Shown piece by piece: positions 13,362 to 51,682 of a DNA stretch of 51,682 nucleotides. Position 1 is the first letter of the stretch. Every line of letters begins with the position of its first letter. Below the pieces are notes generated by a model. The model was not told the origin of the DNA and did not search any database. It saw nothing but the letters and a program-made list of their open reading frames with translations. The DNA is taken from positions 1 to 51,682 of IMG/VR virus record IMGVR_UViG_2651869781_000017; one strand, 5' to 3'. Source of the stretch: a virus. Its lineage: Duplodnaviria > Heunggongvirae > Uroviricota > Caudoviricetes. A program made the position numbers and the translations under genes.

Positions 13362-13395
13362 TGTAGAAAGACTGGATCAATCCACAGGAGTAATT

Positions 13396-14893: not shown

Positions 14894-14895
14894 AC

Positions 14896-16028: not shown

Positions 16029-16101
16029 CCATCTACATCACTGAGCTAATAACAGGCCTGCTGGTAATCGCAGGCCTTTTTATTTGGGGGAGAGGGAAGT
16101 C

Positions 16102-16542
16102 ATGAAAAAACTAACCTTTGAAATTCGATCTCCAGCACATCAGCAAAACGCTATTCACGCAGTACAGCAAATCCTTCCAGACCCAACCAAACCAATCGTA
16201 GTAACCATTCAGGAACGCAACCGCAGCTTAGACCAAAACAGGAAGCTATGGGCCTGCTTAGGTGACGTCTCCCGTCAGGTTGAATGGCATGGTCGCTGGC
16301 TGGATGCAGAAAGCTGGAAGTGTGTGTTTACCGCAGCATTAAAGCAGCAGGATGTTGTTCCTAACCTTGCCGGGAATGGCTTTGTGGTAATAGGCCAGTC
16401 AACCAGCAGGATGCGTGTAAGCGAATTTGCGGAGCTATTAGAGCTTATACAGGCATTCGGTACAGAACGTGGCGTTAAGTGGTCAGACGAAGCGCGACTG
16501 GCTCTCGAATGGAAAGCGCGATGGGGAGATCGGGCTGCATGA
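16102..16542 (+). CDS. ninB: NinB (Orf-family recombination mediator)
   Basis: MKKLTFEIRSPAHQQNAIHAVQQILPDPTKP... is essentially lambda NinB as remembered. Confidence 0.85.
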   Translation: MKKLTFEIRSPAHQQNAIHAVQQILPDPTKPIVVTIQERNRSLDQNRKLWACLGDVSRQVEWHGRWLDAESWKCVFTAALKQQDVVPNLAGNGFVVIGQSTSRMRVSEFAELLELIQAFGTERGVKWSDEARLALEWKARWGDRAA

Positions 16543-17066
16543 CTATCAAATCAAATACGCCAGCACACGACAAGGACTGCTGGCAAACGCCGCTTTGGCT
16601 TTTTGATGCACTGGATATTGAGTTTGGATTCTGGCTGGATTCGGCAGCGAGCGACAAAAATGCTCTGTGCGCTCACTGGTTAACTGAGGCCGACGACGCG
16701 CTCAATTCTGAGTGGGTAAGCCACGGTGCAATCTGGAATAACCCACCGTACAGCAATATCAGGCCGTGGGTAGAAAAAGCCGCTGAGCAGTGCATACAAC
16801 AGCGACAGACGGTAGTGATGCTTGTGCCAGAGGATATGTCAGTCGGATGGTTCAGCAAGGCTCTGGAGAGCGTTGACGAAGTTCGCATCATCACTGATGG
16901 ACGGATTAATTTTATCGAACCATCGACGGGGCTGGAGAAGAAGGGAAACAGCAAAGGCTCAATGCTGCTGATTTGGCGACCGTTCATCAGTCCTCGACGG
17001 ATGTTTACTACCGTATCCAAAGCGGCATTGATGGCGATCGGGCAGGGCGTCAGGAGGGCGGCATGA
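16539..17066 (+). CDS. phage DNA N6-adenine methyltransferase
   Basis: NPPY catalytic motif (IWNNPPYSN) and DCWQTP N-terminus typical of phage N6A methylases; ATGA overlap with ninB. Confidence 0.7.
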
Positions 17067-17239
17067 GACGACAGCGACGAAGTATCACCGACATAATCTG
17101 CGAAAACTGCAAATACCTTCCAACGAAACGCTCCAGAAATAAACGCAAGCCAATCCCAAAAGAATCTGACGTAAAAACCTTCAACTACACGGCTCACCTG
17201 TGGGATATCCGGTGGCTAAGACATCGTGCGAGGAAATAA
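17063..17239 (+). CDS. ninE: NinE
   Basis: [23 protein letters not shown]... matches lambda NinE. Confidence 0.75.
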
Positions 17240-17241
17240 CA

Positions 17242-17643
17242 ATGCTTTTAATTCAACCTGGATTTGGCCTTAGCATCAAAAAAGGGCACATGTTTGGCGA
17301 GAAAGAGTCTCAACGAAAAATGGTGTCGATACAGTTGCCATTTATCAGTATTTATTGGCTAAACAGGGAGGCAACAAATTATTGGTATACATGCGCCAGA
17401 GCAGCATTTAACGACCCTGACTGGTTTGTGAAAAACCACCACGCAGTTCGTCAGGCAAAGAGAAAGGCCAATACGACATACATGAAGGCGTATCGAAAAG
17501 CATGGAAAGAACACCGCGATCGATACCAACAAGACATGGAAAAGCTTGAATCAGAAAACATGGAATTAAGACGAAAGCTTGGTGAAGCAAAACGAGACAT
17601 TGATGCTTACAAGCGACTTTTTAATGGTGAAAGCCATGCTTAG
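17242..17643 (+). CDS. hypothetical nin-region protein (133 aa)
   Basis: ORF with GAGGAA RBS 6 nt before the ATG; C-terminal coiled-coil; no recognisable family. Confidence 0.4.
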   Translation: MLLIQPGFGLSIKKGHMFGEKESQRKMVSIQLPFISIYWLNREATNYWYTCARAAFNDPDWFVKNHHAVRQAKRKANTTYMKAYRKAWKEHRDRYQQDMEKLESENMELRRKLGEAKRDIDAYKRLFNGESHA

Positions 17644-17812
17644 TCCATCCCAATCCCTTCAATACCAGAAAGAAAGCGTCGAGCGGGCTTTAACGTGCGC
17701 TAACTGCGGTCAGAAGCTGCATGTGCTGGAAGTTCACGTGTGTGAGCACTGCTGCGCAGAACTGATGAGCGATCCGAATAGCTCAATGTACGAGGAAGAA
17801 GACGATGAATGA
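17636..17812 (+). CDS. ninF: NinF
   Basis: MLSPSQSLQYQKESVERALTCANCGQKLHVLEVHVCEHCCAELMSDPNSSM... matches lambda NinF. Confidence 0.8.
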   Translation: MLSPSQSLQYQKESVERALTCANCGQKLHVLEVHVCEHCCAELMSDPNSSMYEEEDDE

Positions 17813-18527
17813 GTTAATAAATGGCAATGCCATCAAAATGACAAGCATTGAAATCGCTGAGTTGGTTGGTAAGCGTCATGACAATGTGAAACGTACCATC
17901 GAAACGCTGGCTAAAAATGGTGTTATCCGGCTTCCTCAAATTGAGGATTGTGGAAGAATCAATGGGTTAGGCTTAAATCAAAGTTTTTGTGTGTATGTAT
18001 TCGAAGGCGAACAAGGAAAGCGAGACAGTATTGTCGTTGTAGCCCAGTTGTCGCCGGAATTCACCGCTCGTCTTGTTGACCGTTGGCGAGAGCTTGAAGA
18101 AACTGCGGTTAATATCCCAAAAACGCTACCAGAAGCGTTGCGCCTTGCTGCTGACCTTGCTGAGCAGAAAATGCAACTGGAAAACCAGCTCGCAATTGCC
18201 GCACCTAAAGTTGAGTTTGCCGATCGCGTTGGCGAGGCCAGCGGAATTTTGATTGGAAACTTTGCAAAGGTTGTTGGAATTGGTCCAAACAAACCGTTTG
18301 CGTGGATGCGCGATCACAAAATCCTTATTGCTTCAGGTTCCCGGCGCAATGTGCCAATGCAGGAATATATGGATCGCGGCTATTTCACAGTGAAAGAAAC
18401 AGCGTTCAACACAAATCACGGAATACAGATATCGTTCACCACAAAAATCACCGGGCGTGGTCAACAGTGGCTGACCAGAAGGCTGCTCTATAGCGGAATG
18501 CTGAAAGTAACAGGGGAGGCTGCTTAA
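17805..18527 (+). CDS. Rha-family phage regulatory protein / antirepressor-like
   Basis: N-terminal Rha-type motif (MTSIEIAELVGKRHDNVKRTIETL) and antirepressor-type C-terminal region. Confidence 0.6.
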   Translation: MNELINGNAIKMTSIEIAELVGKRHDNVKRTIETLAKNGVIRLPQIEDCGRINGLGLNQSFCVYVFEGEQGKRDSIVVVAQLSPEFTARLVDRWRELEETAVNIPKTLPEALRLAADLAEQKMQLENQLAIAAPKVEFADRVGEASGILIGNFAKVVGIGPNKPFAWMRDHKILIASGSRRNVPMQEYMDRGYFTVKETAFNTNHGIQISFTTKITGRGQQWLTRRLLYSGMLKVTGEAA

Positions 18528-18817
18528 TGGCTAACCTACGCAAAGAAGCACGCGGCAGAGAATGCCAGGTACGTATTTACGGCGTATGCAATGGCAACCC
18601 TGAAACTACAGTTCTGGCACATTACCGGATGGCTGGAATTTGCGGAACGGGAATGAAGCCTGACGACCTGATCGGTGCATGGGCTTGTAGTGCGTGTCAC
18701 GATGAAATCGACCGACGCACCCATAACCTCGACAACAAAGACGCAAGACTTTACCACCTCGAAGGCGTGATCAGAACGCAGGCGATACTGCTGAGGGAGG
18801 GGAAGATTAAGTCATGA
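18527..18817 (+). CDS. DUF1364-like Cys-rich nin-region protein
   Basis: 96 aa with conserved Cys/His positions (CQVRIYGVC, CSACHDEID). Confidence 0.45.
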   Translation: MANLRKEARGRECQVRIYGVCNGNPETTVLAHYRMAGICGTGMKPDDLIGAWACSACHDEIDRRTHNLDNKDARLYHLEGVIRTQAILLREGKIKS

Positions 18818-19176
18818 ACGAATATCAGTTTGTGCTTCCATACCCGCCGTCGGTGAATACCTACTGGCGAAGACGGGGAAGCCAATATTACATAAGCGAT
18901 AAAGGCCAGAAATACCGAAAAGACGTTCAGCAAATCATCCGCCAACTTAAGTTAGACATTTTCACCAAATCACGACTCCGCATCAAAGTCATCGCAGACG
19001 TTCCAGACTCCCGCCGCCGCGACCTCGACAACATCCTGAAAGGTTTACTCGACTCCCTTATCCACGCCGGATTTGCGGAAGACGACGAGCAATTCGATGA
19101 CATTCGCGTAATTCGTGGCGTGAAAGTACCAGGCGGAAGGCTTGGAATAAAAATCACCGAACTGGAGAACGTATGA
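18814..19176 (+). CDS. rusA: RusA Holliday-junction resolvase
   Basis: 120 aa; MNEYQFVLPYPPSVNTYW...DLDNILKGLLDSL is the characteristic RusA signature. Confidence 0.85.
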   Translation: MNEYQFVLPYPPSVNTYWRRRGSQYYISDKGQKYRKDVQQIIRQLKLDIFTKSRLRIKVIADVPDSRRRDLDNILKGLLDSLIHAGFAEDDEQFDDIRVIRGVKVPGGRLGIKITELENV

Positions 19177-19361
19177 ACGCCACAATTCAAACGATACCAG
19201 AGCTTCTTATCCAGACACGAGGCAATCAGACCGAAGTGGCGAGGATTCTTTCCTGCGCAAGAGGAACAGTGCTCAAGTACAACCGAGACAGCAAAGGCGA
19301 GCGTCACGTAATAGTTAACGGCGTCCTGATGGTCACGCCAGGCAAAAAGGGAAGACGATGA
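19173..19361 (+). CDS. ninH: NinH
   Basis: ...GNQTEVARILSCARGTVLKY... matches lambda NinH (GNQTEVARRLKCSRGTVRKY). Confidence 0.75.
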   Translation: MNATIQTIPELLIQTRGNQTEVARILSCARGTVLKYNRDSKGERHVIVNGVLMVTPGKKGRR

Positions 19362-19981
19362 GACTCGAAAGCGTAGCTAAATTTCATTCGCCAAAAAGCC
19401 CGATGATGAGTGACTCACCACGGGCCACGGCTTCTGACTCTCTTTCCGGTACTGATGTGATGGCTGCTATGGGGATGGCGCAATCACAAGCCGGATTCGG
19501 CATGGCTGCATTCTGTGGTAAGCACGAACTCAGCCAGAACGACAAACAAAAGGCTATCAACTATCTGATGCAATTTGCACACAAGGTATCGGGGAAATAC
19601 CGTGGTGTGGCAAAGCTTGAAGGAAATACTAAGGCAAAGGTACTGCAAGTGCTCGCAACATTCGCTTATGCGGATTATTGCCGTAGTGCCGCGACGCCGG
19701 GCGCAAGATGCAGAGATTGCCACGGTACAGGTCGGGCGGTTGATATAGCCAAAACGGAGCAGTGGGGGAGAGTTGTTGAGAAAGAGTGCGGAAGATGCAA
19801 AGGTGTCGGCTATTCAAGAATGCCAGCAAGCGCCGCATATCGCGCTGTAACGATGCTAATCCCAAACCTTACTCAACCCACCTGGTCACGCACTGTTAAG
19901 CCGCTGTATGACGCTCTGGTGGTGCAATGCCACAAAGAAGAGTCAATCGCAGACAACATTTTGAACGCGGTCACACGTTAG
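19358..19981 (+). CDS. Q: late-gene antiterminator Q (lambda type)
   Basis: 207 aa; translation near-identical to lambda Q as remembered. Confidence 0.9.
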   Translation: MRLESVAKFHSPKSPMMSDSPRATASDSLSGTDVMAAMGMAQSQAGFGMAAFCGKHELSQNDKQKAINYLMQFAHKVSGKYRGVAKLEGNTKAKVLQVLATFAYADYCRSAATPGARCRDCHGTGRAVDIAKTEQWGRVVEKECGRCKGVGYSRMPASAAYRAVTMLIPNLTQPTWSRTVKPLYDALVVQCHKEESIADNILNAVTR

Positions 19982-37927: not shown

Positions 37928-38025
37928 TTCGCTTGGATGCGGCAAAGAAATCAAAACAGTGAAGCCCCAACTGCGGGAACAGTCAGGGCTTCGGTATCGT
38001 AAAACCACGCATAGGAATTAACGAC

Positions 38026-39049: not shown

Positions 39050-41179
39050 ATGACAGATATCACCGCAAATGTTGTGGTAAGCATGCCTTCGCAACTCTTC
39101 ACTATGGCTCGTTCTTTTAAAGCCGTAGCTAATGGCAAAATTTATATCGGAAAAATTGACACTGACCCGGTAAATCCAGGAAACCAGATCCAGGTTTATG
39201 TGGAGAACGAAGATGGCTCTCATGTTCCTGTTTCGCAACCAATCATCATTAACGCTGCCGGATATCCGGTATATAACGGACAGATTGCCAAATTCGTTAC
39301 CGTGCAAGGCCATTCTATGGCTGTTTATGATGCATATGGTGCGCAGCAGTTTTATTTTCCTAATGTGTTGAAGTATGATCCTGATCAGTTTAGTTTGAAG
39401 CTATCCATGCCTGATGGGGCAGGTGAAATTGGATATCAATATAGAAATAATGTTACATCTTCTTACCGAAGAGTAAACGACAAGCTTGATGAGCATGTCA
39501 GTATTCTGGATTTTCATAGAAATGTTGATGGTGGGTTAATCCTTCCTGCACAGAATGTTGATAGTAGACCATTCTTTGAGCGAGCACTTGTATACATTGA
39601 ATCAATAGGCGGTGGCACTATTTATGTACCGGCTGGAAAATACTATTTAAATTCATACAGTGAAATAGGGATCATAGGCACTGTCTTTAATGCAATATTG
39701 CCACTTTGCGATAATGTTAAAATTTTATTGGATACAGCGGCAGAAATAGTTGTCGGTACTTTTTTTGATGACAAGCCTTTCCAGTTGTTTTTTGGTTCTT
39801 CGCCTTTGAAACCAAATCTTGTAGACGCTGTAAATAATGTTGTCATAGAAGGTGGTACAATTAGCTTTAGTGGTTATAGCAGTATGATGAGAACAGCACC
39901 ACTAAACAGAATTGCATTGCAGACAGGAAATATAGATAATCTTCGCATATCAAATGTTACCTTTCGTGATGGTGACTTAACAAACGCTTTAGCGATAGGA
40001 TACAAAAATCTAGGCAAATATGCAGTTGTTGAGAATTGCAACTTTATTGACCTTATTCAGAACGGAATGAATAACGATCATAGTAGTATCTACCTTAATG
40101 CGTCACACTCTACAATTAATAATTGCAACTTTATTTCCACGATAGATAAAGGAAGGAAGATCGCTTGTGCTGTTGAGTTGCATAAATCTTTCAATAGTTG
40201 GATTGGTGGTAATGTTGATGGCTATACACGTGGTGCTTTTATAAACGCTATTGATACTGAATCATCTCTTGTAGAAAACACCAGAATTGAATCAGTTACC
40301 GCTAGAATACTACACCAGTTTGTAGCGTACTCGTTCGGTTCTAATGGGGTTATAAGAAATAGTCTTGTTTCAGGAAATAATGTAACAACTCTTGCGAGAA
40401 GTTCATCCGATACAGATCCTTCAGAATTTGGACCTTGCAGTCTCTGCGGTTGGGTGTCATATGGTAGTTTTGCAAATGCAGAAGGCCTAAATATCGTAGT
40501 TGAAAATAATACATACATTGTTGATGAATCAGTACAAGATTCATATAGTTGCGTATTTTATGCAATCGCAAATGTTTCAGGTGTTACTGTTCGTAGAAAC
40601 AGTGTTGGAGCGAGAACTTTTTTCTACAACCCAACCCCATCACTAAATCTTTACAATTGCCATTTTTATGAAAACAGGTTTGAGGAATCGTATGTACAGA
40701 GCGGTTCAGAAAGATTTTTATATGATCTTAACTGTAATCGTATTTCTCAAAGCACTTTCGAAGCATTTGTTCCAATAAAAACAACTGCACTGACAGGAGT
40801 TATGAGGATTGACCCATCTACGCTCGGTCCGCAGAATCGTTTTGTTGTCGATACTCAGAATACAGATAATATTGAACACCCATTTATTACAAATTTGCCA
40901 GGTTTGCTCGGGCAGGATGGTACAACTTACTCATATCCGCAAAAATGCGATGTCAACATCGGAGTTGGTTCTACACCTGTCCTATCTGTGATAAGTCCGG
41001 AAATAAGCACTGTAGACAGAGGACAGATTCTTAACAACGCGAACCTTCCATCTGGTTATGTCGCTCCGTCGTCGTTAATGAAGTACGATTCTACGCTTAC
41101 AGGAGCTGGTGTCACAGTATCAGGGACGCCATCCGGTAATTATCATGACGTGAGGATTCTACTGATAAGAGAACGTTAG
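39050..41179 (+). CDS. tailspike protein (P22-type N-terminal head-binding domain plus distinct receptor-binding domain)
   Basis: N-terminal 110 aa [34 protein letters not shown]...VLKYDPDQ matches P22 gp9 head-binding domain; rest diverges. Confidence 0.88.
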
Positions 41180-41392: not shown

Positions 41393-41439
41393 ATTCGTAA
41401 TGCGAAGGTCGGAGGTTCGACTCCTCTTATCGGCACCAT
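41393..41439 (+). repeat. attR: duplicated 3' 47 bp of thrW
   Basis: Exact copy of 1399-1445; lacks the tRNA 5' half so it is not a functional tRNA. Confidence 0.85.
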
Positions 41440-42263
41440 CAAGAAAATCAATAACTTAGCTTAACTTCTCTAAGAAATTGTATCTTCTGTTATCACTTAC
41501 AAACGCCTATACGTTGTTATGGGCTTTTGGTAGTTTAACACGTATGGGCGAGTAGTTCCCAGGCTCAACCTCGTAACAAGTTCCTTTGAAGCTGGAAGAC
41601 GTGCCACCGTCTCTAAACCTTCTACCAAAACTCTTAGCAAGATGTTCCACACCTGGCGCGGTGTCCAATGATGCTACACGTCGTGAGACGTTGCAGAGGA
41701 TAAACAGGCTAAATGATGGGAAGAGTTTTAAGTGCAATAGTGGATTAAAGCCCACCTCTTCAAAACCTAACTTGATCGGGAAAGAATCAAGCTCTAGCAC
41801 GGTTTCGTCCACCGGAGTACAACGGGTGCCTGATAAGAGAAGAACTGCTAAGACTTCATAGCTTTTGTGAAAAAGCCCTTTTTAGTGGATACGCCTACGG
41901 CGCTTATTTTTTGGTATAACCATCAAAGGCGCTTTATGGCTCCTATTGTCTTGAAAATGTATCTTTACTTGTATTGTGTTTTATGCGTAGTCTCCCTGTG
42001 TAGTATGTAACTTGTTAATTTTCATATGAATACAGAGGCACACGATGAAAAACATTGCAGCTATCAAACGTAATAACCGCAAGATTCACGCTCGTAAGTT
42101 CCTGTCTACGCCAGAGGGAAAAGCCTGGCTAGAGCGTAAACAGCGAGAGAACGAAGAAAGAAAACTCCTTAGTGAGTTGAAATGGCTTAAGGATTGAATC
42201 ACCAGTAGGCGCATAACACATCCAGCGATCAAAGATGTGTTTATGCGCCTGATAGTGAAATTA

Positions 42264-42422
42264 TTAAAGTTTTTTAGTTAATGTAGCCATTGCATGAACG
42301 ATGATCGCTAGTGAATCGATTTTATCTCGAGGGGTAAAATAGATGAGGTATATGATGGTAACAATTACAGCTAAAGTAATTGTGGTTCTGCAGGTTTTTA
42401 AAATGGATGAGATAAAGCGCAT
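42264..42422 (-). CDS. small hydrophobic protein (52 aa)
   Basis: ORF with G-rich RBS; single hydrophobic helix (TITLAVIVTIIYLIYF). Confidence 0.3.
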   Translation of the reverse strand: MRFISSILKTCRTTITLAVIVTIIYLIYFTPRDKIDSLAIIVHAMATLTKKL

Positions 42423-42748
42423 AGATACCCCCTATTGATTTAACAATAGCAAAGTATCATTTATTTTTTATTGCACGCAACATGCAAATTTTCACATATA
42501 ATAGTTTACTATTCACTTTGTATGGTGTCAACAAGATGATGTGTTGTTTTGTTTGATTTGTTCAAGATAATGTTTCATTTTCTCATCTATATAACTTGTG
42601 TTTTAGATAATTTCACTAATTGTAAAAGTTACGTATTGCTTAATAGCTACCTTTTTATCTGAAATCGGCGCAGACGTGATCAATGTTTAACGCGAAGATC
42701 AGCGGCGTCAGGTCCACGCAGCGACAATTCTCAAATATCAAGGAGGCA

Positions 42749-43288
42749 TTACGCCTCCTCTTCTTCCTTCTTGATACGTTGCACCGTTGAAGGAGCAACA
42801 TTAAAGCTCTCGGCGGTTTTACGCACTGACAGGCCATCAGAAAGGGCTTTCTTTATACCTTCTCGATCCACTGCTTTTCCATTACCACGTTTTGTAGGAT
42901 TGACGGCTTGCGCTTCTCGTTTACGTTCTAACATCAGTTCACGTTCACACGTTGCAACTGCCGACAACATCGTAAGCATCATCTTTCCCATCGCGCTTGT
43001 AATGTCTGCAATGATTCCTTCTTTGTGAAATCGAACAATTACACCTCGATTATTAAGTTGTTCAACTAAAGCAAGGATGTCTAAGGTGTTACGTCCTAAA
43101 CGGTCGAGAGAGTGCACGTGTAAGGTGTCGCCTTCTCTCAGATAGGCTAAACACGCTTGTAAGCCTGGGCGGTTAGTGTCTTTACCAGACAGCTTATCTT
43201 CAAAGACTTTATCGAGAGTTACTCCTGCAAGCTGGCGATCAGTGTTCTGATCTACAGTGCTCACACGCTTATAACCGATATTGCTCAT
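42749..43288 (-). CDS. small serine recombinase (resolvase/invertase family)
   Basis: 179 aa; catalytic N-terminus GYKRVSTVDQNTDRQ, LDRLGRN motif, C-terminal HTH. Confidence 0.85.
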   Translation of the reverse strand: MSNIGYKRVSTVDQNTDRQLAGVTLDKVFEDKLSGKDTNRPGLQACLAYLREGDTLHVHSLDRLGRNTLDILALVEQLNNRGVIVRFHKEGIIADITSAMGKMMLTMLSAVATCERELMLERKREAQAVNPTKRGNGKAVDREGIKKALSDGLSVRKTAESFNVAPSTVQRIKKEEEEA

Positions 43289-43940
43289 AAAATCCTCTTA
43301 ATGTGTCGATTTGGCACTACTTCAATGCAAATGAGTATACCGTATTCATTTGGTCTGTTTCAAGCCTTATGGGTACGGAATATTACACGATTTAGCTGTA
43401 TTCATTTGGTATGCCTAATGGATACACAGGGGGATAGATTAAATGTTGTTCTGTTTATACAGGTTTATTTGTTAGATCAACAATTTGGCATTTCTAAACA
43501 GATGTTTGAACGTTGCCAAATGTCTTGACAACACAAGAAAAGGGCTTGCTATGCCACGCATTACACGAAATAAGGCTATAAAAACAAAATAAATTTTAAA
43601 ATTTGCACAAACGAGAGAACTCATTCGACAAATAATAGATTAATTTTTAGCCAACAATTTATGATGGTGCTCTGTAAGCCGCACTACACAAGGATTTGCG
43701 AAAGTGATGTAAAAGTGAAGAAAGTGAGAATTGCCCTTTTAAGCTACTTTTTCATTGAATTTTTAGTATGGAATTACACAGGGAATAGAGAGCATTATTC
43801 TATGATTTACACAGGGAATATAGGGGGATTATGGCACACACATAGAAAGGCATTACACAGAGTGCTATGTGACAAATGGATGTAACGAGAGGTTACATTC
43901 AGCTATCTGAAATGCTCTCTGTAAGAAAGTTGGTAGTAAC

Positions 43941-44052
43941 GGTAGGTCACTGTGAACTAGGGGGGGTAGTTCACTATGAGCTAGGGGGGTAGTTCACTAT
44001 GAGCTAGGGGGTAGGTCACTGTGAACTAGGGGGTAGGTCACTGTGAACTACA
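43941..44052 (+). repeat. five tandem 22-24 bp iterons (GGTAGGTCACTGTGAACTAGGG family)
   Basis: Five direct repeats in two sequence variants, followed by an A/T-rich tract with a (TA)n run near 44100-44127. Confidence 0.8.
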
Positions 44053-45152
44053 ATAAGACTATTAATAAAACTATATTAGATTATTAATTAGATCATAATA
44101 ATAATATTCTTTATATCTATATATATATATATGATCTTTTGCCTTTCGGCGTTAGCTCCACTCTCTGGCAAGCAGCCTTACTCCGCTACCTTTCGGGCTA
44201 CGTTGGCTGGCCTCGTTCCGCTCACACCGAAAGCAAAGCGTTACTTTCTTCGTGTAACTATCGTTGGCGATAACGCCCACGAAGAAATACTATTGCGCTG
44301 TGCGCAGTAAGAGTAATCACCTAACCAATCATACTGATTGCTTACGTGTTAACTCTATCTCTCTACCTCGTAATTACCCTCCTACACTTAATAACTCTCG
44401 TTATTCTCTGTAGTTGTGTAATTACTCGAAGAGAGAGCGGCTAAAGCTCAATTACACTCTGCTTTCCTCGTGTAATTTCACTAAGCCTCAATACAATTCC
44501 ACTTCCTACATTCTGTAGTCGTGTAATTGTTTTCGGTGGAAAAGCCAGAGGCGACACCGAAAGAGAATTCTGATCTTATTAATCTTATCTATCTTAGTTA
44601 ATCTTCTTACTTACTTTATCTACTTTATTATTAATAATAGCTTTATAAGCTCTCTGTAGCTCTCTGACGCAAGAAACAGCATTCAGGAAGGGAATCACCT
44701 TAGAAAAGTGTTCTTTGCGTCATAATGTGTTTTATGAAGGATTCAGAGGTGTTTCATAACAGGAGTGTATAGAGGATACTTTAATTAATTAAAAATAAGG
44801 GGTCTAAATGCTTCTCTAACAGCATTAAGCAGGGTAGGGAATGGAAACGCATTGCCTACATATATAAGCTCACTACAGGGCTTTACAGAGCGTTTTATAA
44901 AGTGACTCTCTATCTTATATCTACCATTACCTTTTCATATACCTAACAAATACAAAATAAGCCCCTTAAATAAGCCTCTGGCGAGCTAAACAGCCATTAG
45001 ATAAGGGAATGTATTGCTTTTATCAAAATCTCGTTAGAACGCGTTTTAGAGCGTTTTAGCGGATAATGAAGAATAGCACTACACAGAAGAGCACGAATTG
45101 CTAAGAAAAAATGTAAGTGCATGAAAAAGATCAGATTTTTTGTGAAAAGGTA

Positions 45153-45181
45153 TTGACAAATGTTTCTTTATATGTAATAAT
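45153..45181 (+). promoter_or_regulatory. sigma70-like promoter (TTGACA, 17 bp, AATAAT) upstream of 45292 operon
   Basis: Consensus -35 with 17-bp spacer to an A/T -10 hexamer. Confidence 0.45.
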
Positions 45182-45291
45182 AGGTATTAGAGGGACAGAA
45201 AAACATTCTTCTCTAAATAATCAAAATCAATGCACTTTGAAGCCGTCAGGCTTGCAAGGTGTTTTTCTTTTAACTGAATAAGGAGTTTTTT

Positions 45292-45480
45292 ATGAAATGG
45301 TTTACACCGGAACACGTCGTCGCGGCATTTAAAAAAGGTGAGCTAACACGCCACCAAGTAGTAATGAATCGTAATATGGCAAGGAGTCGAGGTTATCCAG
45401 AGCGTGAAAAATGTTTCGATGCAGCACTAAAAATTATTGATGAACTAAGAAAAAATGAAAAAGAATCTGAAACAGAGTAA
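45292..45480 (+). CDS. hypothetical small protein (62 aa)
   Basis: ORF with AGGAG RBS. Confidence 0.4.
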   Translation: MKWFTPEHVVAAFKKGELTRHQVVMNRNMARSRGYPEREKCFDAALKIIDELRKNEKESETE

Positions 45481-45499
45481 AGAATAGAAGGAGAAAACT

Positions 45500-45667
45500 A
45501 TGAGCGAAACTAAGAAACCAATTCCGCGCACTTACCTACACGTTGACCCTGAAATCTTCAAGGTTTTATTTGCTGAAGCCAAGAAAAGGCAAATTATGGT
45601 CAGTGATTTGATGTTAGAAATCATTACTGAAGCAGCAGAGAACATCAAACAAAAAAAGGGTAAGTGA
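45500..45667 (+). CDS. putative ribbon-helix-helix DNA-binding protein (55 aa)
   Basis: Beta-strand then two helices pattern (RTYLHVDPEIFKVLFAEAKKRQIMVSDLMLEII); GGAG RBS. Confidence 0.4.
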   Translation: MSETKKPIPRTYLHVDPEIFKVLFAEAKKRQIMVSDLMLEIITEAAENIKQKKGK

Positions 45668-45718
45668 TCCTCATTCACTTTAGTAGCGCATTAAGCGTGA
45701 TTTATAAGGAGATTTTTA

Positions 45719-46411
45719 ATGATTAATCAACTAACTTTTACAAAACACTATGACACGTTTGATAATGTATCAAAGATTTATTCTGATAAATTCCCTCAAG
45801 GAAAAGATTTAGATCTATTACATATTGTGCTTTATTTTCGATTCCTTAGTTATCAGGAAAACAACCTTAATTGTTATGAAAGTCACGAAACATTAGCTAA
45901 GATTTTTAAGTCTTCAGCGTCAACAATTAAACGTAAGATAAACGATCTTAAAGAGATGGGATTATTAGAAACATCCCCACATCCTGATCCGTATATTTCA
46001 TCTTTGATTTACAATGCTCTCCCTCTCACAGATGCACATATTACTCCCCCAGGAGAATCATCACTCTCTGATCTTTCTGAGGCAGAAGAAGCACAGGAAC
46101 AACCTAAAGGCCATAAACAGCCTTCTTTTGATGTTCTTGATGATGATTGGGATACGCCTTTACCCTGGGAGACGGAAGAAACACCTGTTTCATCAAGTGA
46201 AAAGGTAGCTAATGATAATGAGGAGGATGTGTTAGAGAATTTTGCCTCTCTTATCATCCAGGAGAAGACTACAAGAACAGGAGGGGCATCATTTATTGAG
46301 TTTGCAAATTCACTAGCTTATAGACACGGGCTAAAACGACCAAATGGTATTGAGGCATATTTTTCTAAGCATTACCCAAATGTGTATGAAGACTTTGATA
46401 TTCCATTTTAA
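45719..46411 (+). CDS. hypothetical protein with N-terminal HTH and acidic linker (possible replication or regulatory protein)
   Basis: 230 aa; HTH-like segment (HETLAKIFKSSASTIKRKINDLKEMGLL); AGGAG RBS. Confidence 0.4.
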   Translation: MINQLTFTKHYDTFDNVSKIYSDKFPQGKDLDLLHIVLYFRFLSYQENNLNCYESHETLAKIFKSSASTIKRKINDLKEMGLLETSPHPDPYISSLIYNALPLTDAHITPPGESSLSDLSEAEEAQEQPKGHKQPSFDVLDDDWDTPLPWETEETPVSSSEKVANDNEEDVLENFASLIIQEKTTRTGGASFIEFANSLAYRHGLKRPNGIEAYFSKHYPNVYEDFDIPF

Positions 46412-46422
46412 TAAGGAGGGTT

Positions 46423-46701
46423 ATGATTCAATATTTAGTAAAAAATCAAGTAGACAGAATTCAGTGTAATGACACAGGAAAACGCATCTACGAAACACTT
46501 GCTTACCTCTATAAAGGAAAGCCAACACCGCTAAAATATAGCGATGTGTTACACCGAGCAGGGTGCTCTGAAGATGGTTTAAAATTCTGGCTGAAACAGC
46601 TATCAAATTTCGGTGTTATAGAGATTAAAGAATTATCTTTCTCTACATTCAATCTCAAAAGACTGGATAAAGAAATAGTATTCATCTATTCCACTCTCTA
46701 A
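46423..46701 (+). CDS. hypothetical protein (92 aa), possible winged-helix
   Basis: ORF with GGAGGG RBS. Confidence 0.35.
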   Translation: MIQYLVKNQVDRIQCNDTGKRIYETLAYLYKGKPTPLKYSDVLHRAGCSEDGLKFWLKQLSNFGVIEIKELSFSTFNLKRLDKEIVFIYSTL

Positions 46702-46833
46702 AATCTCTCTATGTAATTAAAATATAAAAGGAAAACATTATTATGATAGTAGCTATGTATTGGTTATTGTTCTTTCTCACGTTAGAAACATATTTCGGGG
46801 TGTTTTCCTTTAAAAGAAAAGGAAAAGTAAATA

Positions 46834-47241
46834 ATGGCAAAAAGAAAAAACAACGTTGTTAAGAAAATCGGTGATTCAGCTTCTCTTCTAAGTAAACCTA
46901 AATCTATTCTAAGACGTAAAGACTTTAAAGAGCTAGTTACGCTCTCCAAGCAAAATAGCGCCCCTGGCGAATGGAAAACAGAGATCATAGAACATTCTCC
47001 CTCTGTGCCTTGTGGAGATGAATTTAACGCCTTACAAGAAATCTTATCTTCAACACCTGGCGTATTCTGGAAACCTAGAAAAAGAAAAGAGTATATTGTT
47101 GATAGCTCTGATTTACGCAAATACCAGATTTTAGGATTTGAAGACTATAACCACTACGTTGGTTATCTCGCCACCAATGGCCTAAATAATTTAGTTCCTG
47201 AATTCCATTTAGATAATGATGATCACTATGGAGACTTTTAA
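46834..47241 (+). CDS. hypothetical basic protein (135 aa)
   Basis: ORF with AAGGAAAAG RBS. Confidence 0.35.
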   Translation: MAKRKNNVVKKIGDSASLLSKPKSILRRKDFKELVTLSKQNSAPGEWKTEIIEHSPSVPCGDEFNALQEILSSTPGVFWKPRKRKEYIVDSSDLRKYQILGFEDYNHYVGYLATNGLNNLVPEFHLDNDDHYGDF

Positions 47242-47242
47242 T

Positions 47243-47578
47243 ATGAACAAAAACACGTATGACACAATTTATTCACTAATTAATTATTATGAGGATGATT
47301 ACCTCCTGCCTTTAAACCGTGCTGAACTTGAAGCACACAAAAACTCCACGCCAGCGGCACTAAATGAGGCGTTTAAACACTGGGATTTAGCTGTGAATGC
47401 CTTTGAGATGCTCTGTAAGCGTGTAGAGATGCTCTGTAAGCGTGAAAACGCATACCTGACAGCCGATCAGATATGGGAGCTATCAAACTGGATAGAAGAT
47501 ATTGAATCTGATGTTCGCTATGTGGGAGATGGCCTTATCGAACTCGCTCAACGCTTAGCTGTTATCACAGAAGAATAA
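47243..47578 (+). CDS. hypothetical protein (111 aa) containing a 21-bp tandem duplication
   Basis: ORF contains in-frame direct repeat GAGATGCTCTGTAAGCGTG x2 (EMLCKRVEMLCKRE). Confidence 0.35.
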   Translation: MNKNTYDTIYSLINYYEDDYLLPLNRAELEAHKNSTPAALNEAFKHWDLAVNAFEMLCKRVEMLCKRENAYLTADQIWELSNWIEDIESDVRYVGDGLIELAQRLAVITEE

Positions 47579-47607
47579 AAAAAGCAACAAAAAAGTTGTA
47601 AAATATC

Positions 47608-47636
47608 TTGACATTTCATCTATTGTATGTTAATAT
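47608..47636 (+). promoter_or_regulatory. near-consensus sigma70 promoter (TTGACA, 17 bp, TAATAT)
   Basis: Exact -35 consensus, 17-bp spacer, strong -10; upstream of 47922-49540 gene block. Confidence 0.55.
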
Positions 47637-47921
47637 AATTATATAGGGTGATTATTTTTCCTTTATTGGTTCGATATTAAAAATTCTTCTTGTCGTTAAA
47701 GGGGAGTAAAATCTCCGCTCCCCGCTTCTCCTCCTCCTTAAGTGTCATTATTACCTCTTTTTTCCTTTGTTATGCATACATCTTGGAGTATGCATAACAT
47801 AGGGTAATTACATAGGTACAAGTTAATAAAAGGCGGCTCTAAATGCTGCCTTTTATTTTGCCCGTTATACAACTTAAAAGTTGTATTTCTTACTTTAAAC
47901 AAGGTAACAAGGTTTATATAA

Positions 47922-48134
47922 ATGTTGTTCTTAAATGATAAAGAGCAAATCATCAAGTATCGCGATGAAATGCTAAAGATCAATCCACAAATTACCGAAA
48001 TGGTAGCTAAATACGCTGGGTGTTCTGTCGAGGAAGTAGAAAGATGTGTTGAAAAATATTTTTCTCCTTCTTCTCCGTCTACACCTTCCCTTAATGAATT
48101 AATCAAATTAAAAGCTAAGGAGATTACTAAATGA
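47922..48134 (+). CDS. hypothetical protein (70 aa)
   Basis: ORF; stop overlaps next gene start. Confidence 0.35.
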   Translation: MLFLNDKEQIIKYRDEMLKINPQITEMVAKYAGCSVEEVERCVEKYFSPSSPSTPSLNELIKLKAKEITK

Positions 48135-48493
48135 TTATTGATTTAGACACTCTGTTTCCAGTTCGAAAGACTTTCACAGATATTGTAAGTTATTGTACTG
48201 ATCCGTTTGCCTCTGTAGAAAACAAGGTTTTTGCTTCTCTTCCTGCTGATGTTGAATGCGGAGACTTGATCACCAGCACTGGCGCTAAATATGTATCAGG
48301 AGATGATATCTATGTTGTTATGAGTGAATTTGTAACGGCTGGAGACAACAAGCCTGTAGATGTGCTACGTAGCAATGCTGGTCTTGTCTGCATCAAAGCT
48401 GATGCGCTGAATGCTGTAAGTGAAGCAGCAAAAACAGCATTAATTAAAAAAGGCTTCCAGCTTGAAGGCTTCCACTCTGTTTTCACTTCTTAA
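48131..48493 (+). CDS. hypothetical protein (120 aa), possible virion accessory or decoration protein
   Basis: ORF immediately upstream of capsid-like gene. Confidence 0.3.
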   Translation: MIIDLDTLFPVRKTFTDIVSYCTDPFASVENKVFASLPADVECGDLITSTGAKYVSGDDIYVVMSEFVTAGDNKPVDVLRSNAGLVCIKADALNAVSEAAKTALIKKGFQLEGFHSVFTS

Positions 48494-48511
48494 TAAAAGG
48501 AATAATAATAA

Positions 48512-49540
48512 ATGATTCTAGGTAATGATTACGTTGATTTAGCTCCTTTGTTCTCTGCGCATAGCACTAGAAACTATCTGCTTTCTACTCTCGACTTCAC
48601 TGATCCGGTGGGCGTTAGTTCTCATAAAGTAGCTGTTTCCCAGCTTGTCGAAAGCAACGAATCTCTCTTTAACAAAGAGACAAGCCGTTTTAGTTCTGAA
48701 CACAATGTTACTAAGCGAGAACAAGGTAAAGAATGGCTGATTGAAATCCCTTACTTCCTGCGTGAAGATGTGATCCGTCCTTCTGATGTTCAAGGCAAAC
48801 GTAAACCTGGCACTGATTTTCAGGAAACACTCACTGATATTTATGCTGACTATGTTGCTAAACACCACGTAGCGTATCAGCGCACTAAAGAAAGCGTATT
48901 GGCTGCATCTCTGTTTAGCGGTAAAACTTACACGCCTAAAACTGATGATGTGTTAATTGAGTGGGGCAAGCTGTTTAACGTATCAGCTATGAAAGCCACT
49001 GTGAACGCTTCCAGCACTGACACCACGAAGATTTTTAAAGAATTTGATCAGATTGCTACTGACATTATCGAGAAAGCACAAAGCCAGGCGGCTGCTGTAG
49101 AGCGTATTGTTGTTTTCTGTAAGCCGGAAGCCTTCTCTGCAATTCGATTCTCTGCGGGTATGGCAAACGCATTCCAGTATGTAAGCCCACTGGAAGAAGG
49201 GAACGTTGTGTATCAGCGTCGTGACCTGCTACCAGGAGTGACAGCGTTCACTATTCCAGGAACTAACATTGATGTTATTAAACTGGTAGATCCGCTACAC
49301 CTTGCACATATGACCGCTGACGCTGTAGCCGTGCCTAAATTCGCTAAAGGCTCTAACGTCTACCAGGCCATCTATGGGGCGGCTTCCAGCACCTTTGAAC
49401 TGATCAATGCCGCTCCTGCTGAGGTTTACAGCTACAGCTATGAATCTTCTCGTGGTGATGCTGTTAACGTTGTTACAGAGAATAGCCAGATGGTTGTAAA
49501 CCACGGTGTAGGCTTCTCCGTTCAAATCACTGTTAAATAA
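48512..49540 (+). CDS. putative major capsid protein (possible T7 gp10-like, HK97 fold)
   Basis: 342 aa; local resemblance to T7 gp10A (ours RIVVFCKPEAFSAI versus T7 RVFYCDPDSYSAI) and similar length; from memory only. Confidence 0.4.
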   Translation: MILGNDYVDLAPLFSAHSTRNYLLSTLDFTDPVGVSSHKVAVSQLVESNESLFNKETSRFSSEHNVTKREQGKEWLIEIPYFLREDVIRPSDVQGKRKPGTDFQETLTDIYADYVAKHHVAYQRTKESVLAASLFSGKTYTPKTDDVLIEWGKLFNVSAMKATVNASSTDTTKIFKEFDQIATDIIEKAQSQAAAVERIVVFCKPEAFSAIRFSAGMANAFQYVSPLEEGNVVYQRRDLLPGVTAFTIPGTNIDVIKLVDPLHLAHMTADAVAVPKFAKGSNVYQAIYGAASSTFELINAAPAEVYSYSYESSRGDAVNVVTENSQMVVNHGVGFSVQITVK

Positions 49541-49625
49541 TATTTAACGTGTAATAGAGGCGTGGCGTGTATTCACGCTTCGCCTTTTTTTTATTTATTT
49601 TTAAATTTTGAGAGGTGATTAAAAT

Positions 49626-49829
49626 ATGGAAGTGATTCTGAAATCAAAAAATGGTGTCCACGTACATTTAGATGCTAATGATTCTAGAGGCTTGTTAAAT
49701 CTGAAATATCTATGTTCTCTCTTAGATGTTCCATATGAAGGAGTAAAAGCCCGTATGTTCAGACTAAACGAGAGTATTGATCAGGCTCTACACCATTTCT
49801 TAAGTAAAGAAGGTGGTAAAAATGATTAA
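49626..49829 (+). CDS. hypothetical small protein (67 aa)
   Basis: ORF between capsid-like gene and large downstream ORF. Confidence 0.3.
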   Translation: MEVILKSKNGVHVHLDANDSRGLLNLKYLCSLLDVPYEGVKARMFRLNESIDQALHHFLSKEGGKND

Positions 49830-49843
49830 TAAGGGGATTTTAA

Positions 49844-51682
49844 ATGTTAGAAATTAACACTTCTAAAATTAAGAACACAGTTACATTTAGTGTAGATAAA
49901 GACAGCTTGAAAAAAGCGAAAGACTCTATTACAGGCTTAAAGGAATTCGCAGAAAATATCAAGCCTGCTAAATTAAGATTTGATACTGTCACTAAAGGCT
50001 ATAAGAAAGCACAAAGTGAAGTAGATAAGATTGCTCAACAGAAAGCGAAAAACGAAAAACAGAATCAAAGAGCACAAGCTGCCGCAGCAAGAGCACAGGC
50101 AAGGCAACAGCAACAAATAGCAGCACGTAAGGAGAAAGCTGAACTAAAGCTTTTAGACGTTGGATCAAGCATTAGTGCAATGCACCGTCTTTCTGTAGCT
50201 GAACAATACAAAGCTATTGCACAGGCTAGAGAGATAGCAAAACAATATGAGCAAGGGGCTATCTCGCTTGCACGTATGAATAGCCAGATGAAACGCTTAC
50301 AACAGCAACAACGTAAGATTAATGGCAACAGAAAAGCTCAATTAGCCCCCGTTAAGGGAGGATCAGGGAATTCCGCCACTATGGGCGCTCTGTTATTTGG
50401 AGGCGCTACGGCGGCTGCTGGCGTGATGGCTGTAAGTAAAACCGCCGAGTTTGTTAGTAAAAGTTTCGCTAACGCAGAGACACAAGGAGAATTAATCCAA
50501 CGTGCAAGGCTTGGCGGTGTAGACGTTAACCAGATGTATAACATTACAGAATGGGCGTATAAAAACGGCGTTGACTCTATGATGGGTGATCAAGGGGCTA
50601 GAAAATACCTGGATCAGATGAAAGATGTTAGGGAACGTGCTACCAAATCTTATGACGAGGCTGAATATGTAGTTGATAAGAAAACAGGGAAAGGCATATG
50701 GAAAGGCGGTGATAACGGTATTAATGAACTTCTAAACATCGGTGTTATTAACAAAAGCGACCTTAAAAAATTTGCTGATAATCCAGCCGGATTAATTTCT
50801 AAGGCTGTTAATGGAATGATGAAAAAAGGGTTTTCAGATTCTCAAATTGGACAACGTTTAGAAGACCTGGGCGATGATTTGATGCTTACGTCAAAATATT
50901 GGCAACGTTCCGTTAAAGATGTACAAGAAAGTATTAATCAGCAAAAAGCCTCTGGAAAATGGCTAACAGAAACACAGCAAGACTCTATCGTTAAATTCAG
51001 AGAACTAAACAGACAGCTTTCGCAGCTTTCTGATGCAAGACAAGTAGCATTTGTAGACGGGTTTATGAAATCTCTCGATCCAAAAGTAACGGAAGAGTTT
51101 TTGAAAAACCTTTCTAATCTCACTCCGTATTTTACGAAGCTGGGAGAAGCTACAGGAAGTCTCTTTGAAGCTATTATGAAGATTGTAAACTGGTTTAATC
51201 GTAATGATGATAAGACAGAGGCTATTCAGAAAAATTTAGGTGATGCACCGCCATTAAGCAATGAAGGAATGAAACAGAATCTTTCTAATCTCGTTCCTGA
51301 CCAATATAAAGGCGCTGGCACTGCAACAACTACACCTGATAATAGTCATTCTCTCTTTAACACGATTAAGGGATTGCTTTTCGATGATAAATCTTCTGTG
51401 TCAGATGTAAAAATGTCAGTCAGCGAAGCACCGATAACCAATCTCAAACAGGGTGCTTTAAATAATCTTGCAATGACAACTCCGGCTTATAATTTATCTC
51501 CTGTATTCAATCTGAATCCGACATTTGAAGTGGTAACGGAGGTTCCGCTTACTATTAATTCTGACACGTCCAGATTAAGCGATTATGTGGATTTTACAGC
51601 GAGAGCAAGTCGGGATAGCTTCTTGAAATCATTAACATTAACCAGCTTATCAGGACAATCTAACGGCGGGGAATTCCCGCCA
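49844..51682 (+). CDS. large coiled-coil protein, 3'-truncated by window end (at least 613 aa)
   Basis: Open frame from ATG 49844 to window end with no stop (absent from ORF track because no stop); Q/A/R-rich coiled coil then Gly/Ala hydrophobic segment. Confidence 0.5.
   Translation, partial: MLEINTSKIKNTVTFSVDKDSLKKAKDSITGLKEFAENIKPAKLRFDTVTKGYKKAQSEVDKIAQQKAKNEKQNQRAQAAAARAQARQQQQIAARKEKAELKLLDVGSSISAMHRLSVAEQYKAIAQAREIAKQYEQGAISLARMNSQMKRLQQQQRKINGNRKAQLAPVKGGSGNSATMGALLFGGATAAAGVMAVSKTAEFVSKSFANAETQGELIQRARLGGVDVNQMYNITEWAYKNGVDSMMGDQGARKYLDQMKDVRERATKSYDEAEYVVDKKTGKGIWKGGDNGINELLNIGVINKSDLKKFADNPAGLISKAVNGMMKKGFSDSQIGQRLEDLGDDLMLTSKYWQRSVKDVQESINQQKASGKWLTETQQDSIVKFRELNRQLSQLSDARQVAFVDGFMKSLDPKVTEEFLKNLSNLTPYFTKLGEATGSLFEAIMKIVNWFNRNDDKTEAIQKNLGDAPPLSNEGMKQNLSNLVPDQYKGAGTATTTPDNSHSLFNTIKGLLFDDKSSVSDVKMSVSEAPITNLKQGALNNLAMTTPAYNLSPVFNLNPTFEVVTEVPLTINSDTSRLSDYVDFTARASRDSFLKSLTLTSLSGQSNGGEFPP

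Follow-up and report, generated by a model that had tools for sequence, protein, structure and literature searches.

The stretch between positions 43941 and 45291 of IMG/VR virus record IMGVR_UViG_2651869781_000017, the whole 51,682 nucleotides of which are called here the window, belongs to an integrative element of ~12.3 kb located downstream of a P22-like prophage. This stretch can be described, tentatively, as the cis-acting replication and control region of the element. It would combine an iteron-type origin served by a replication initiator (Rep) encoded further downstream, a row of hairpins that would assist priming or replisome loading, and a promoter followed by a leader terminator that would switch the Rep operon. 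Taken as a whole, with the role of the hairpins and the switch included, this statement is given slightly less than an even chance of being correct, and its parts deserve to be graded separately. The pairing of the iterons with Rep, the conservation of the hairpins and the presence of a promoter with its terminator are the parts shown by sequence comparison between relatives.

The five iterons of 22-24 bp reported in the original prediction were recovered at 43941-44055 as GGTAGGTCACTGTGAACTAGGGGG-like units spaced by 24, 23, 22 and 22 bp (Tandem Repeats Finder: period 22, 4.8 copies, 90% match). The A+T tract with its (TA)n run was confirmed as well, with 89% A+T over 44052-44133 and (TA)10.5 at 44112-44132, and such a tract follows the iterons in every relative examined. 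The relatives, taken from IMG/VR, from one Escherichia sp. genome and from E. coli genomes, share 89-98% identity with the window on either side of two short patches, the iterons (~43950-44085) and the 5' third of the Rep gene (~45730-46113), and these two patches are replaced together. Five iteron families are found in the relatives: A (GGTAGGTCACTGTGAACTAGGGG), B (GATACCCCTATCAA), C (CCTAGGAAATGAGTTCC), D (CCCCCACAGAATTCTGTTA) and E (GTAACGATATGTTACAT). Five types of Rep N-terminus pair one-to-one with the iteron family that adjoins the A+T tract, namely type I with A (12 loci), type II with B (1 locus), type III with C (2 loci), type IV with D (8 loci) and type V with E (2 loci). No exception was encountered in about 25 loci, and the pairing holds in both lineages of the element between parts that lie 1.7 kb apart. 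Initiator specificity is exchanged as a split cassette, iterons plus Rep N-terminus, across a conserved spacer of 1.7 kb. Since an initiator and its binding sites classically co-vary in this way, it is highly probable that 43941-44133 constitutes, together with Rep, an iteron-type replication origin, and the theta-type origin proposed originally gains support from an iteron family that changes in step with the N-terminal domain of Rep. The iterons cannot be the operator of Rep, because Rep is encoded 1.7 kb away.

The candidate initiator itself matches PHROG 270, 'replication initiation protein' (2e-9), and the Pfam family HTH_36 just under the cut-off (2.8e-5). Searches of the PDB and NCBIfam with Rep and with the 55- and 62-amino-acid (aa) proteins encoded upstream of it gave nothing significant. 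The left flank of the origin (43416-43940) is ~96% identical in relatives in which both the recombinase cassette (42195-43416) and the iterons have been replaced. One orphan foreign iteron, of type E, lies in the window near 43880-43900. Some relatives carry stacked iteron arrays of two or three families, each with its own A+T tract and all accompanied by a single Rep type (L001 9606-10116, L007 1755-2370, L008 5008-5435).

A row of eight stem-loops, with almost no spacer between them, starts 4 bp past the A+T tract when 44137-44562 is folded with a base-pair span limited to 110 nt. In the stem 44245-44287, CTTTCTTCGTG pairs with CACGAAGAAA; AATTACAC pairs with GTGTAATT within 44437-44489, and GTAATTAC with GTAATTAC within 44358-44436. 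The folding z-score of 44134-44565 is -7.0 on the plus strand and -8.3 on the minus strand, and reaches -9.1 in the 300-nt window starting at 44189, as compared with +0.8 for the coding sequence of the major capsid protein and with about +0.7 to -1.9 for coding windows of the same element. The segment 44130-44265 folded alone as DNA gives weak values (-1.1 and -1.8), the signal requiring the whole cluster to be folded. The relatives were folded by a sliding scan, the distance from the module to the first gene being variable, so that a fixed offset misleads. In eleven family members, gene-free windows have a mean z of -1.9 against -0.71 downstream (Mann-Whitney p = 7e-11, overlapping windows), and all eleven show a strongly self-complementary peak beside the iterons, even where the sequence is unrelated.

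This hairpin module is the most constrained sequence of the element, since its divergence lies below that of the codon positions 1+2 and of the four-fold degenerate sites of its neighbours. Among 14 distinct copies of the lineage, mean pairwise divergence amounts to 0.013 in the hairpin cluster 44137-44562, to 0.016 in the whole module 44137-44862 and to 0.055 in the promoter-proximal part 44863-45291. The corresponding values for seven neighbouring genes are 0.035 at codon positions 1+2 and 0.13 at four-fold degenerate sites. Loops and apical extensions vary between relatives while basal stems persist. Enterobacter and Klebsiella relatives carry the same form of the module, called type 1, at ~69% identity and allow a test of covariation, in which the structure was predicted from the window alone and counted on an alignment made from sequence only. 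In these homologues, 84% of the cells of the window structure are paired, as against 30-40% when the partners are slid by 1-3 columns. Changes on both sides affect 16 pairs, as against 1-6 in the slid controls, and the covariation score was reached in none of 500 shuffles. These counts provide moderate evidence that the secondary structure of the cluster has been conserved by selection across genera.

A sister lineage (L013, L014, L020-L022, L027, L041, L045 and L126) possesses a module of similar length, called type 2, which cannot be aligned with type 1 except for two blocks. These blocks, CCGCTCACAMCGAA followed by AAATAnTnTTGCGCTGTGCGCAG, keep their order and spacing and enclose a hairpin of different sequence. 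Among 115 fetched loci they occur together only in this element family. In IMG/VR, the core block TTGCGCTGTGCGCAG alone has 77 matches, about the number expected by chance, and only in family members is it accompanied by the second block. The type 2 module is equally rich in hairpins (z = -8.6) and displays compensatory changes of its own, following the pattern TAGGG(A/C)TA...TA(T/G)CCCTTA, as when TAGGGATA...TATCCC becomes TAGGGCTA...TAGCCC in L020; a two-tier hairpin is rewritten base by base in L027 with its shape kept. The type of the module co-varies with the genes located just downstream of Rep (46423-47241 in the window, 8428-9170 in L020), which encode either a 92-aa protein (MIQYLVKN) and a 135-aa protein (MAKRKNNV) or an 89-aa protein (MxYNITIG) and a 127-aa protein (MGRKKKNN), and the Rep/iteron cassette lying between is swapped freely. 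The 92-aa and 135-aa proteins are candidate partners of the module, because the former looks like a winged helix and the latter has a basic N-terminus. The first gene and the 55-aa gene were also considered as determinants of module type and were rejected for lack of co-variation.

The pairing itself resembles that of a structure acting as DNA. In the window, 105 of the 106 pairs are Watson-Crick, and G-U pairs account for 3-6% of the cluster pairs as against 10-15% in shuffled sequences. Diverged homologues have as many G-T as A-C mismatches, so that neither strand is favoured. A promoter scan of 42600-45800 revealed no convincing promoter facing the module, the number of promoter-like sites being below shuffle expectation, and, three matches at chance level aside, 43289-45320 has none in Rfam 15, whether the gathering score or E up to 5 is used as limit. 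Hairpins formed at the DNA level are favoured because the pairs are nearly all Watson-Crick, because strand bias and a facing promoter are lacking and because Rfam offers no match; such hairpins would be usable on either strand once the A+T tract has been opened. The structured non-coding RNAs of the original prediction survive only in part: a short leader transcript with a conserved intrinsic terminator can be retained, and nothing marks the large hairpin cluster as RNA.

That leader belongs to the right-hand part of the region. The last 330-410 bp (~44880-44962 to 45291) are the only part common to all 725 matching genomes, at 75-95% identity, and an alignment of seven divergent copies contains a conserved block at 44965-45062. 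The best promoter site of 42600-45800 (Table 1) has a -35 sequence, TTGACAAA, which is invariant in seven divergent relatives, and it would serve an operon encoding the 62-aa protein, the 55-aa protein and Rep. The predicted leader precedes a ribosome binding site (45281) and an ATG (45292). The arms of its terminator hairpin are invariant, with a variable loop (GTCA, CAA, CAACAA or CAAGA); in other relatives a C-to-T change produces a G-U pair (L051), or one base is lost from each arm and the stem is kept (L021). An intrinsic terminator or attenuator placed in the leader, behind the strong promoter of the Rep operon, is a likely prediction. Among NCBIfam models, the 62-aa product of the first gene (45292-45480) weakly matches an 'RNA-binding regulator' (E = 0.015; at 15.6 bits, far short of the cut-off) and is no more than a lead for a factor acting on the leader.

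Upstream of the -35 lies a short box (Table 1) built of three ~10-bp units, which suggests binding by a protein along one face of the helix. An intergenic box that shares 94-97% identity with this one is found in three genera of T5-like phages and in Stephanstirmvirinae phages. Its carriers are Tequintavirus phages, Myunavirus My1, Sugarlandvirus KPN4, two Stephanstirmvirinae Klebsiella phages, and Salmonella and Citrobacter plasmids of ~110 kb (SSU5-like-sized). In Tequintavirus, it is found in the terminal repeat, ~60 bp left of the paired DnaA boxes belonging to the repeat region described by Davison, and My1 has at least two copies in its left terminal repeat. Looser copies occur at 706 places on E. 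coli plasmids, and variants occupy the corresponding position in relatives of the element from Enterobacter, Klebsiella and Serratia. Elsewhere the box was located at L017 1501-1531, L018 1287-1325 and 1501-1529, L049 2500-2533, and L050 2311-2350 and 2503-2535, and a CCGCTTAGAATGCGTTTTAGAGCGTTTTAGCGG-like box is also present in L023, L024 and L025. The partial copy at 44866-44897 matches the second box copy of plasmid p14EC017b. On this plasmid and on an IncX4 plasmid (L049), the box follows rep, iterons, one or more DnaA boxes and a ColE1-like primosome-assembly sequence (pas). A module of ~250 nt is common to the IncX4 plasmid (L049 2300-2540) and to an unrelated E. coli plasmid (L050 2110-2350); placed after iterons and DnaA boxes, it runs from the ColE1-like pas through four clustered GATC sites to the 31-nt box. 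When the region was compared by megablast and blastn with phage and plasmid collections, no homologue was detected outside the element family except this box, and its literal sequence had no match in the literature searched.

On the basis of these elements, the following mechanism can be proposed. Rep would bind the five iterons and melt the adjoining A+T/(TA)n tract. The exposed single strand of 44137-44562, or more loosely up to ~44860, where the inverted repeats are near-perfect, would fold into a row of hairpins that would serve as priming or helicase/replisome-loading signals, in the manner of single-strand initiation (ssi) or primosome-assembly sites, the user being the replisome of the host or of a helper phage. 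Transcripts from the strong promoter, which looks constitutive, would mostly end at the leader terminator, with Rep and replication kept low, until termination is relieved, presumably during helper infection, and the Rep operon is turned on. We infer antitermination as the switch of this operon. The role of the hairpins in priming or loading is possible rather than probable, and is proposed by analogy because of their position beside the tract, their DNA-like pairing, their conservation and the precedents known from plasmids. Replication modules of the ssi-CR-iteron type have been described in pHW126-like plasmids (bioRxiv 10.1101/2022.12.05.519187).

Several observations weigh against this description of the region. 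The window has no sequence similarity to known ssi or pas sites (phiX174, G4 and ABC types; plasmid and phage collections), and the ColE1-like pas of L049 and L050 is absent from it. Eight hairpins spread over 430 nt, with nearly every base conserved, greatly exceed the needs of known ssi signals. The origin had been called typical; its iterons, A+T tract and cognate Rep stand, but 43289-45291 contains no TTWTNCACA, no TTATCCACA within one mismatch and no consensus for integration host factor (IHF; WATCAANNNNTTR), and a scan for 13-mer motifs gave no convincing site. DnaA-box-like sequences are present in the relatives L118 and L120. The ATTACACR motifs of the left flank, compared by hand with DnaA boxes, match at 5-8 of 9 positions and were rejected as such. 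As regards the conservation of the module, mosaic recombination may inflate the four-fold divergence that serves as neutral yardstick, and the covariation test amounts to about three independent lineages, with a structure derived from one aligned row. The type 2 module shows no depletion of G-U pairs, and its long-range inverted repeat has been disrupted in L027 and L021 with no compensating change.

The coding content and the motifs noted originally in this DNA bear on the alternatives. No open reading frame (ORF) of 60 codons or more exists up to 45291, as had been stated; the longest in 43993-45291 encode 59 aa (44131-44310) and 54 aa (45117-45281). The 59-aa ORF at 44131 was rejected as a gene, its length ranging from 46 to 77 aa in relatives with single-base indels inside. 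The recurring motifs are present, CTTTCTTCGTGTAACT (44244) with CTTTCCTCGTGTAATT (44462) and TCTGTAGTTGTGTAATT (44407) with TCTGTAGTCGTGTAATT (44512), and they exceed a shuffled control: all five occurrences of their core YGTGTAAYT in the 51.7 kb window fall within 43772-44528, as against 1.5 expected in the whole window, and five were reached in 1 of 100 shuffles. Likewise, TCGTGTAA/TTACACGA has five occurrences in 43289-45291 and none in the remaining 49.7 kb. Three of the four right-hand copies on the plus strand are arms of predicted stem-loops, and the motif shifts to GTGCAAT in relatives. The complementary segments, CCTTTCGG at 44141 and 44189 and CCGAAAG at 44227 and 44557, are real and able to fold, forming the closing stems of the first and the last of the eight predicted stem-loops. 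A binding array for the recombinase of the element was rejected, the array being kept in relatives without this recombinase. A centromere-like partition site, also suggested originally, is unlikely, since the search yielded no gene for a partition ATPase: the element proteins scanned against Pfam and PHROGs gave no match of the ParA/ParM type. The element, moreover, integrates.

Three other explanations of the module deserve consideration, in decreasing order of probability. It might encode one or more long structured non-coding RNAs between 44137 and ~44860: a replication primer or regulator comparable to ColE1 RNA II/RNA I, an immunity RNA like P4 CI, or a new large RNA. Transcription could come from the right or begin at a weak promoter lying within the A+T tract (TATGAT, 44130-44135). 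Such an RNA would agree with the very strong folding scores on both strands, with the compensatory changes found across genera and within the type 2 module, with a divergence far under the synonymous rate and with variable loops and apical extensions over persisting basal stems. It remains unlikely, however: Rfam holds no match, the sole strong promoter (45153) is directed away from the module, no terminator closes the module on the plus strand, and a single G-U pair in 106 without a strand bias of wobble over A-C mismatches would be unusual for a selected RNA. The module might instead be a packaging signal (pac or cos) recognized by the terminase of a helper phage. A cis packaging site must exist somewhere in an element that has capsid, tape-measure-like and Dit-like proteins and in which terminase and portal were not found; the module is its most conserved non-coding DNA, and lineage-specific forms of the module travel with the structural genes and not with Rep. 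This explanation is nevertheless rather improbable, as no phage similarity apart from the 31-nt box appears in a collection of 50,697 records and the two core blocks co-occur only in this element family. Moreover, the position of the module, directly against the unwinding element in every relative, suggests a role in replication, known pac and cos sites are much shorter, and a structured gene-free gap at 47579-47921 is an equally good candidate.

Alternatively, the YGTGYAAT motifs could form a protein-binding array (an operator, a handcuffing array or a partition centromere) recognized by a host factor or by a regulator of the element, for instance the 92-aa or the 135-aa protein, both co-varying with module type. 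This co-variation would fit an array, as would a motif enriched 13-fold and clustered, with copies oriented plus to the left of the iterons and minus to their right, a layout that type 2 reproduces with ATTGCACA/TGTGCAAT. However, the link to the downstream genes may reflect just two clonal lineages, and the recurrence follows partly from the inverted repeats, three of the four right-hand copies being stem arms. Spacers and loops between the motifs are conserved as much as the motifs, which is not required of an array, the scans noted above yielded no ParA/ParM-type partner, and the DNA-binding fold of the 55-aa protein, labelled originally as a ribbon-helix-helix (RHH) protein, was confirmed by no sequence search. 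A binding array is accordingly the least expected of the three and very unlikely. A bolder reading is improbable too: the module of 430-730 nt would represent a new kind of large cis element, constrained in sequence and structure and acting as single-stranded DNA or as RNA, by which an undescribed and widespread satellite family of Enterobacterales captures the replication or packaging machinery of virulent phi92/rV5-like or T5-like helpers, the 31-nt box that they share serving for helper sensing.

Table 1. Proposed features of the replication and control region and of its surroundings (positions in the window; z, folding z-score)
Feature	Position	Strand	Remarks
Left flank of origin	43416-43940		ATTACACR motifs, plus orientation, at 43561, 43774, 43807, 43853
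Iterons, type A	43941-44055	+	proposed binding sites of type I Rep
A+T tract, proposed DNA-unwinding element	44052-44133		GATC sites at 44091 and 44133
Eight contiguous predicted stem-loops	44137-44562		44137-44238, 44245-44287, 44291-44309, 44310-44356, 44358-44436, 44437-44489, 44493-44530, 44531-44562
Core shared with type 2 module	44217-44307		CCGCTCACACCGAA (44217-44230), variable hairpin, AAATACTATTGCGCTGTGCGCAG (44285-44307)
Second A+T-rich tract	44566-44650		80% A+T; tandem units of 9 and 17 bp, differing in copy number among relatives
Further predicted stem-loops	44665-44722, 44723-44827, 44834-44859		slowly evolving part; 300-nt windows z -2.8 to -3.6
Partial second box copy (AAGCTCACTACAGGGCTTTACAGAGCGTTTTA)	44866-44897	+	direct repeat D3, 72% identical to 45027-45058
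Conserved 31-33 nt box (CGTTAGAACGCGTTTTAGAGCGTTTTAGCGG)	45027-45062 (31-nt core 45032-45062)	+	~95 bp upstream of -35
Predicted sigma-70 promoter	45153-45181	+	TTGACA, 17 bp, TG-AATAAT; scores 11/12, best site in 42600-45800
Predicted leader RNA	45187-45271	+	5' hairpin 45187-45216, terminator hairpin 45232-45262, U-run 45262-45271
Rep, replication initiator candidate	45719-46411	+	230 aa, winged helix; N-terminal specificity part ~45730-46113
Lambda-E-like major capsid protein gene	48512-49540
P22-like prophage	1459-41300		integrase 1459-2619, tailspike-like ORF 39050-41179
sar antisense RNA of P22-like prophage	37958-38024		76.6 bits

The window contains, in order, proA, a tRNA-Thr gene (1369-1441), the P22-like prophage and then, from ~41393-41441, the second and separate element studied here. 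The prophage sits at tRNA-Thr directly upstream of the island, the two elements being in tandem at one attachment site. The island covers 41393-51682 of the window and extends beyond it; its counterpart in L001 occupies 7140-19750, and annotated E. coli copies of ~12.3 kb are inserted at thrW (L001) or inside srsR (L002). The element begins with a 50-aa ORF, a small recombinase gene on the minus strand (serine type here, 42749-43288) and ~2 kb of gene-free DNA, followed by two small genes, the 230-aa winged-helix protein and several more small genes. It ends with the capsid gene, a 610-aa tape-measure-like protein, a Dit-like protein and a tyrosine integrase. The 2-kb region is matched in 726 of 5426 complete E. 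coli genomes (13%, ~1 in 8), nearly always on the chromosome, and homologues of the capsid protein extend the family to at least seven other genera (Citrobacter, Enterobacter, Klebsiella, Cronobacter, Dryocola, Serratia and Sodalis). The Pfam and PHROG scans matched only a serine recombinase, an initiator-like helix-turn-helix, the lambda-E-like major capsid protein, the tape-measure-like protein, Dit and the tyrosine integrase; neither terminase nor portal was found among the element proteins. These scans likewise lacked the satellite hallmarks Psu/Sid/Delta, alpha primase, AlpA, Pri-Rep, portal, protease and TerS/HNH, SatelliteFinder not having been run. The tape-measure-like protein shares 34-37% identity with its counterpart in phi92/rV5-like virulent myoviruses. 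Because of this resemblance, of the partial set of virion genes and of the missing terminase and portal, the island looks like a phage satellite, and its family appears to be undescribed, no published description of such an element having been found in the literature searched.

Two further parts of the island were observed. The recombinase cassette 42195-43416 is exchangeable: it holds a serine recombinase here, many relatives have a small XerD-like tyrosine recombinase instead, and others lack the cassette. Direct repeats GTATTCATTTGG (43342 and 43398) and a minus-strand promoter (43363-43334) lie just upstream of the recombinase gene, and the repeats are plausibly its resolution site. A second gene-free gap, at 47579-47921 upstream of the capsid genes, opens with a near-consensus promoter TTGACA...TATAAT (47609-47640), after which ~280 nt form hairpins, some of them terminator-like (AAAAGGCGGC...GCTGCCTTTTATTTT); its z is -5.4, and values of -4 to -9 were obtained for the equivalent gap in relatives. 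According to these predictions, the promoter-then-terminator design recurs ahead of the capsid genes and would be common to both operons.

The proposed origin can be compared with the iteron theta origins of R6K (gamma ori/pi), F (oriS/RepE), pSC101 and P1, and with the origins of Staphylococcus aureus pathogenicity islands (SaPI), of phage-inducible chromosomal islands (PICI) and of PICI-like elements (PLE RepA). It shares with them repeats of 22-24 bp in helical phase, an adjacent A+T-rich tract, a winged-helix initiator encoded nearby and an initiator specificity that co-varies with the repeats. It differs from them by the absence of a DnaA box and of an IHF consensus in the window, by a Rep located 1.7 kb off the iterons whose promoter has a terminator after it, by the exchange of a split cassette and by the two or three non-cognate arrays stacked in some relatives. 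Like the ssi and pas sites (ColE1 pas, RSF1010 ssiA/ssiB, the R1 G-site and pHW126-like ssi), the module is hairpin-forming DNA immediately beside the unwinding region of an origin, in which structure is kept more than sequence between lineages, and it is predicted to function as a folded single strand. However, those sites comprise one or two hairpins of 40-120 nt, as against eight over 430 nt, and the module has no sequence match to them and is fixed at almost every base within its lineage.

A gene-free block of several hundred bases with consecutive hairpins acting as DNA (packaging signal and origins) exists in the intergenic region of the Ff phages (M13/f1), which the module resembles in this respect. 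The Ff phages are, however, single-stranded DNA phages replicating by rolling circle, whereas the element has no HUH/rolling-circle initiator and possesses iterons and a capsid protein of the double-stranded DNA phage type. Repeat region 3, or injection-stop region, of T5 is a gene-free stretch of ~1.2 kb with repeats, inverted repeats and palindromes (Davison, bioRxiv 10.1101/866236). The likeness extends to the 31-nt box, near base for base, and to a gene-free, repeat-packed stretch of ~1.2 kb; in contrast, T5 has paired DnaA boxes and no iterons, nothing else aligns, and no function has been agreed for the T5 region either. As in the P4-like, PICI and capsid-forming PICI (cfPICI) satellites, a small integrative island at a tRNA gene combines its own replicon with partial virion genes and lacks terminase. 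The hallmarks of P4-like elements, PICI, cfPICI and PLE are nevertheless missing from the Pfam and PHROG scans, and the element differs from known satellites by its lambda-E-like capsid and by tape-measure-like and Dit-like proteins related to those of phi92/rV5-type virulent myoviruses.

The iteron origin itself is of an already known kind. What is new here is an eight-hairpin module that evolves more slowly than the surrounding protein-coding positions, the split initiator/iteron cassette, the predicted promoter-terminator arrangement of both operons, and a box common to phage and plasmid origin regions. The five Rep/iteron pairs swapped into two lineages constitute a natural experiment in initiator-origin specificity, and the stacked foreign iteron arrays may bear on incompatibility or cross-replication between related or competing elements. 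The 31-nt box ties the unexplained repeat region of T5 to other phages and to many plasmid origin regions. The module evolves ~10 times more slowly than neighbouring synonymous sites, and its rate lies even below that of codon positions 1+2. Such constraint is unusual in non-coding DNA of bacteria and marks a function yet unnamed. If the module does recruit a replisome or a terminase, it could throw light on the exploitation of virulent phages by a satellite and could provide a compact cis element for the engineering of transducing particles.

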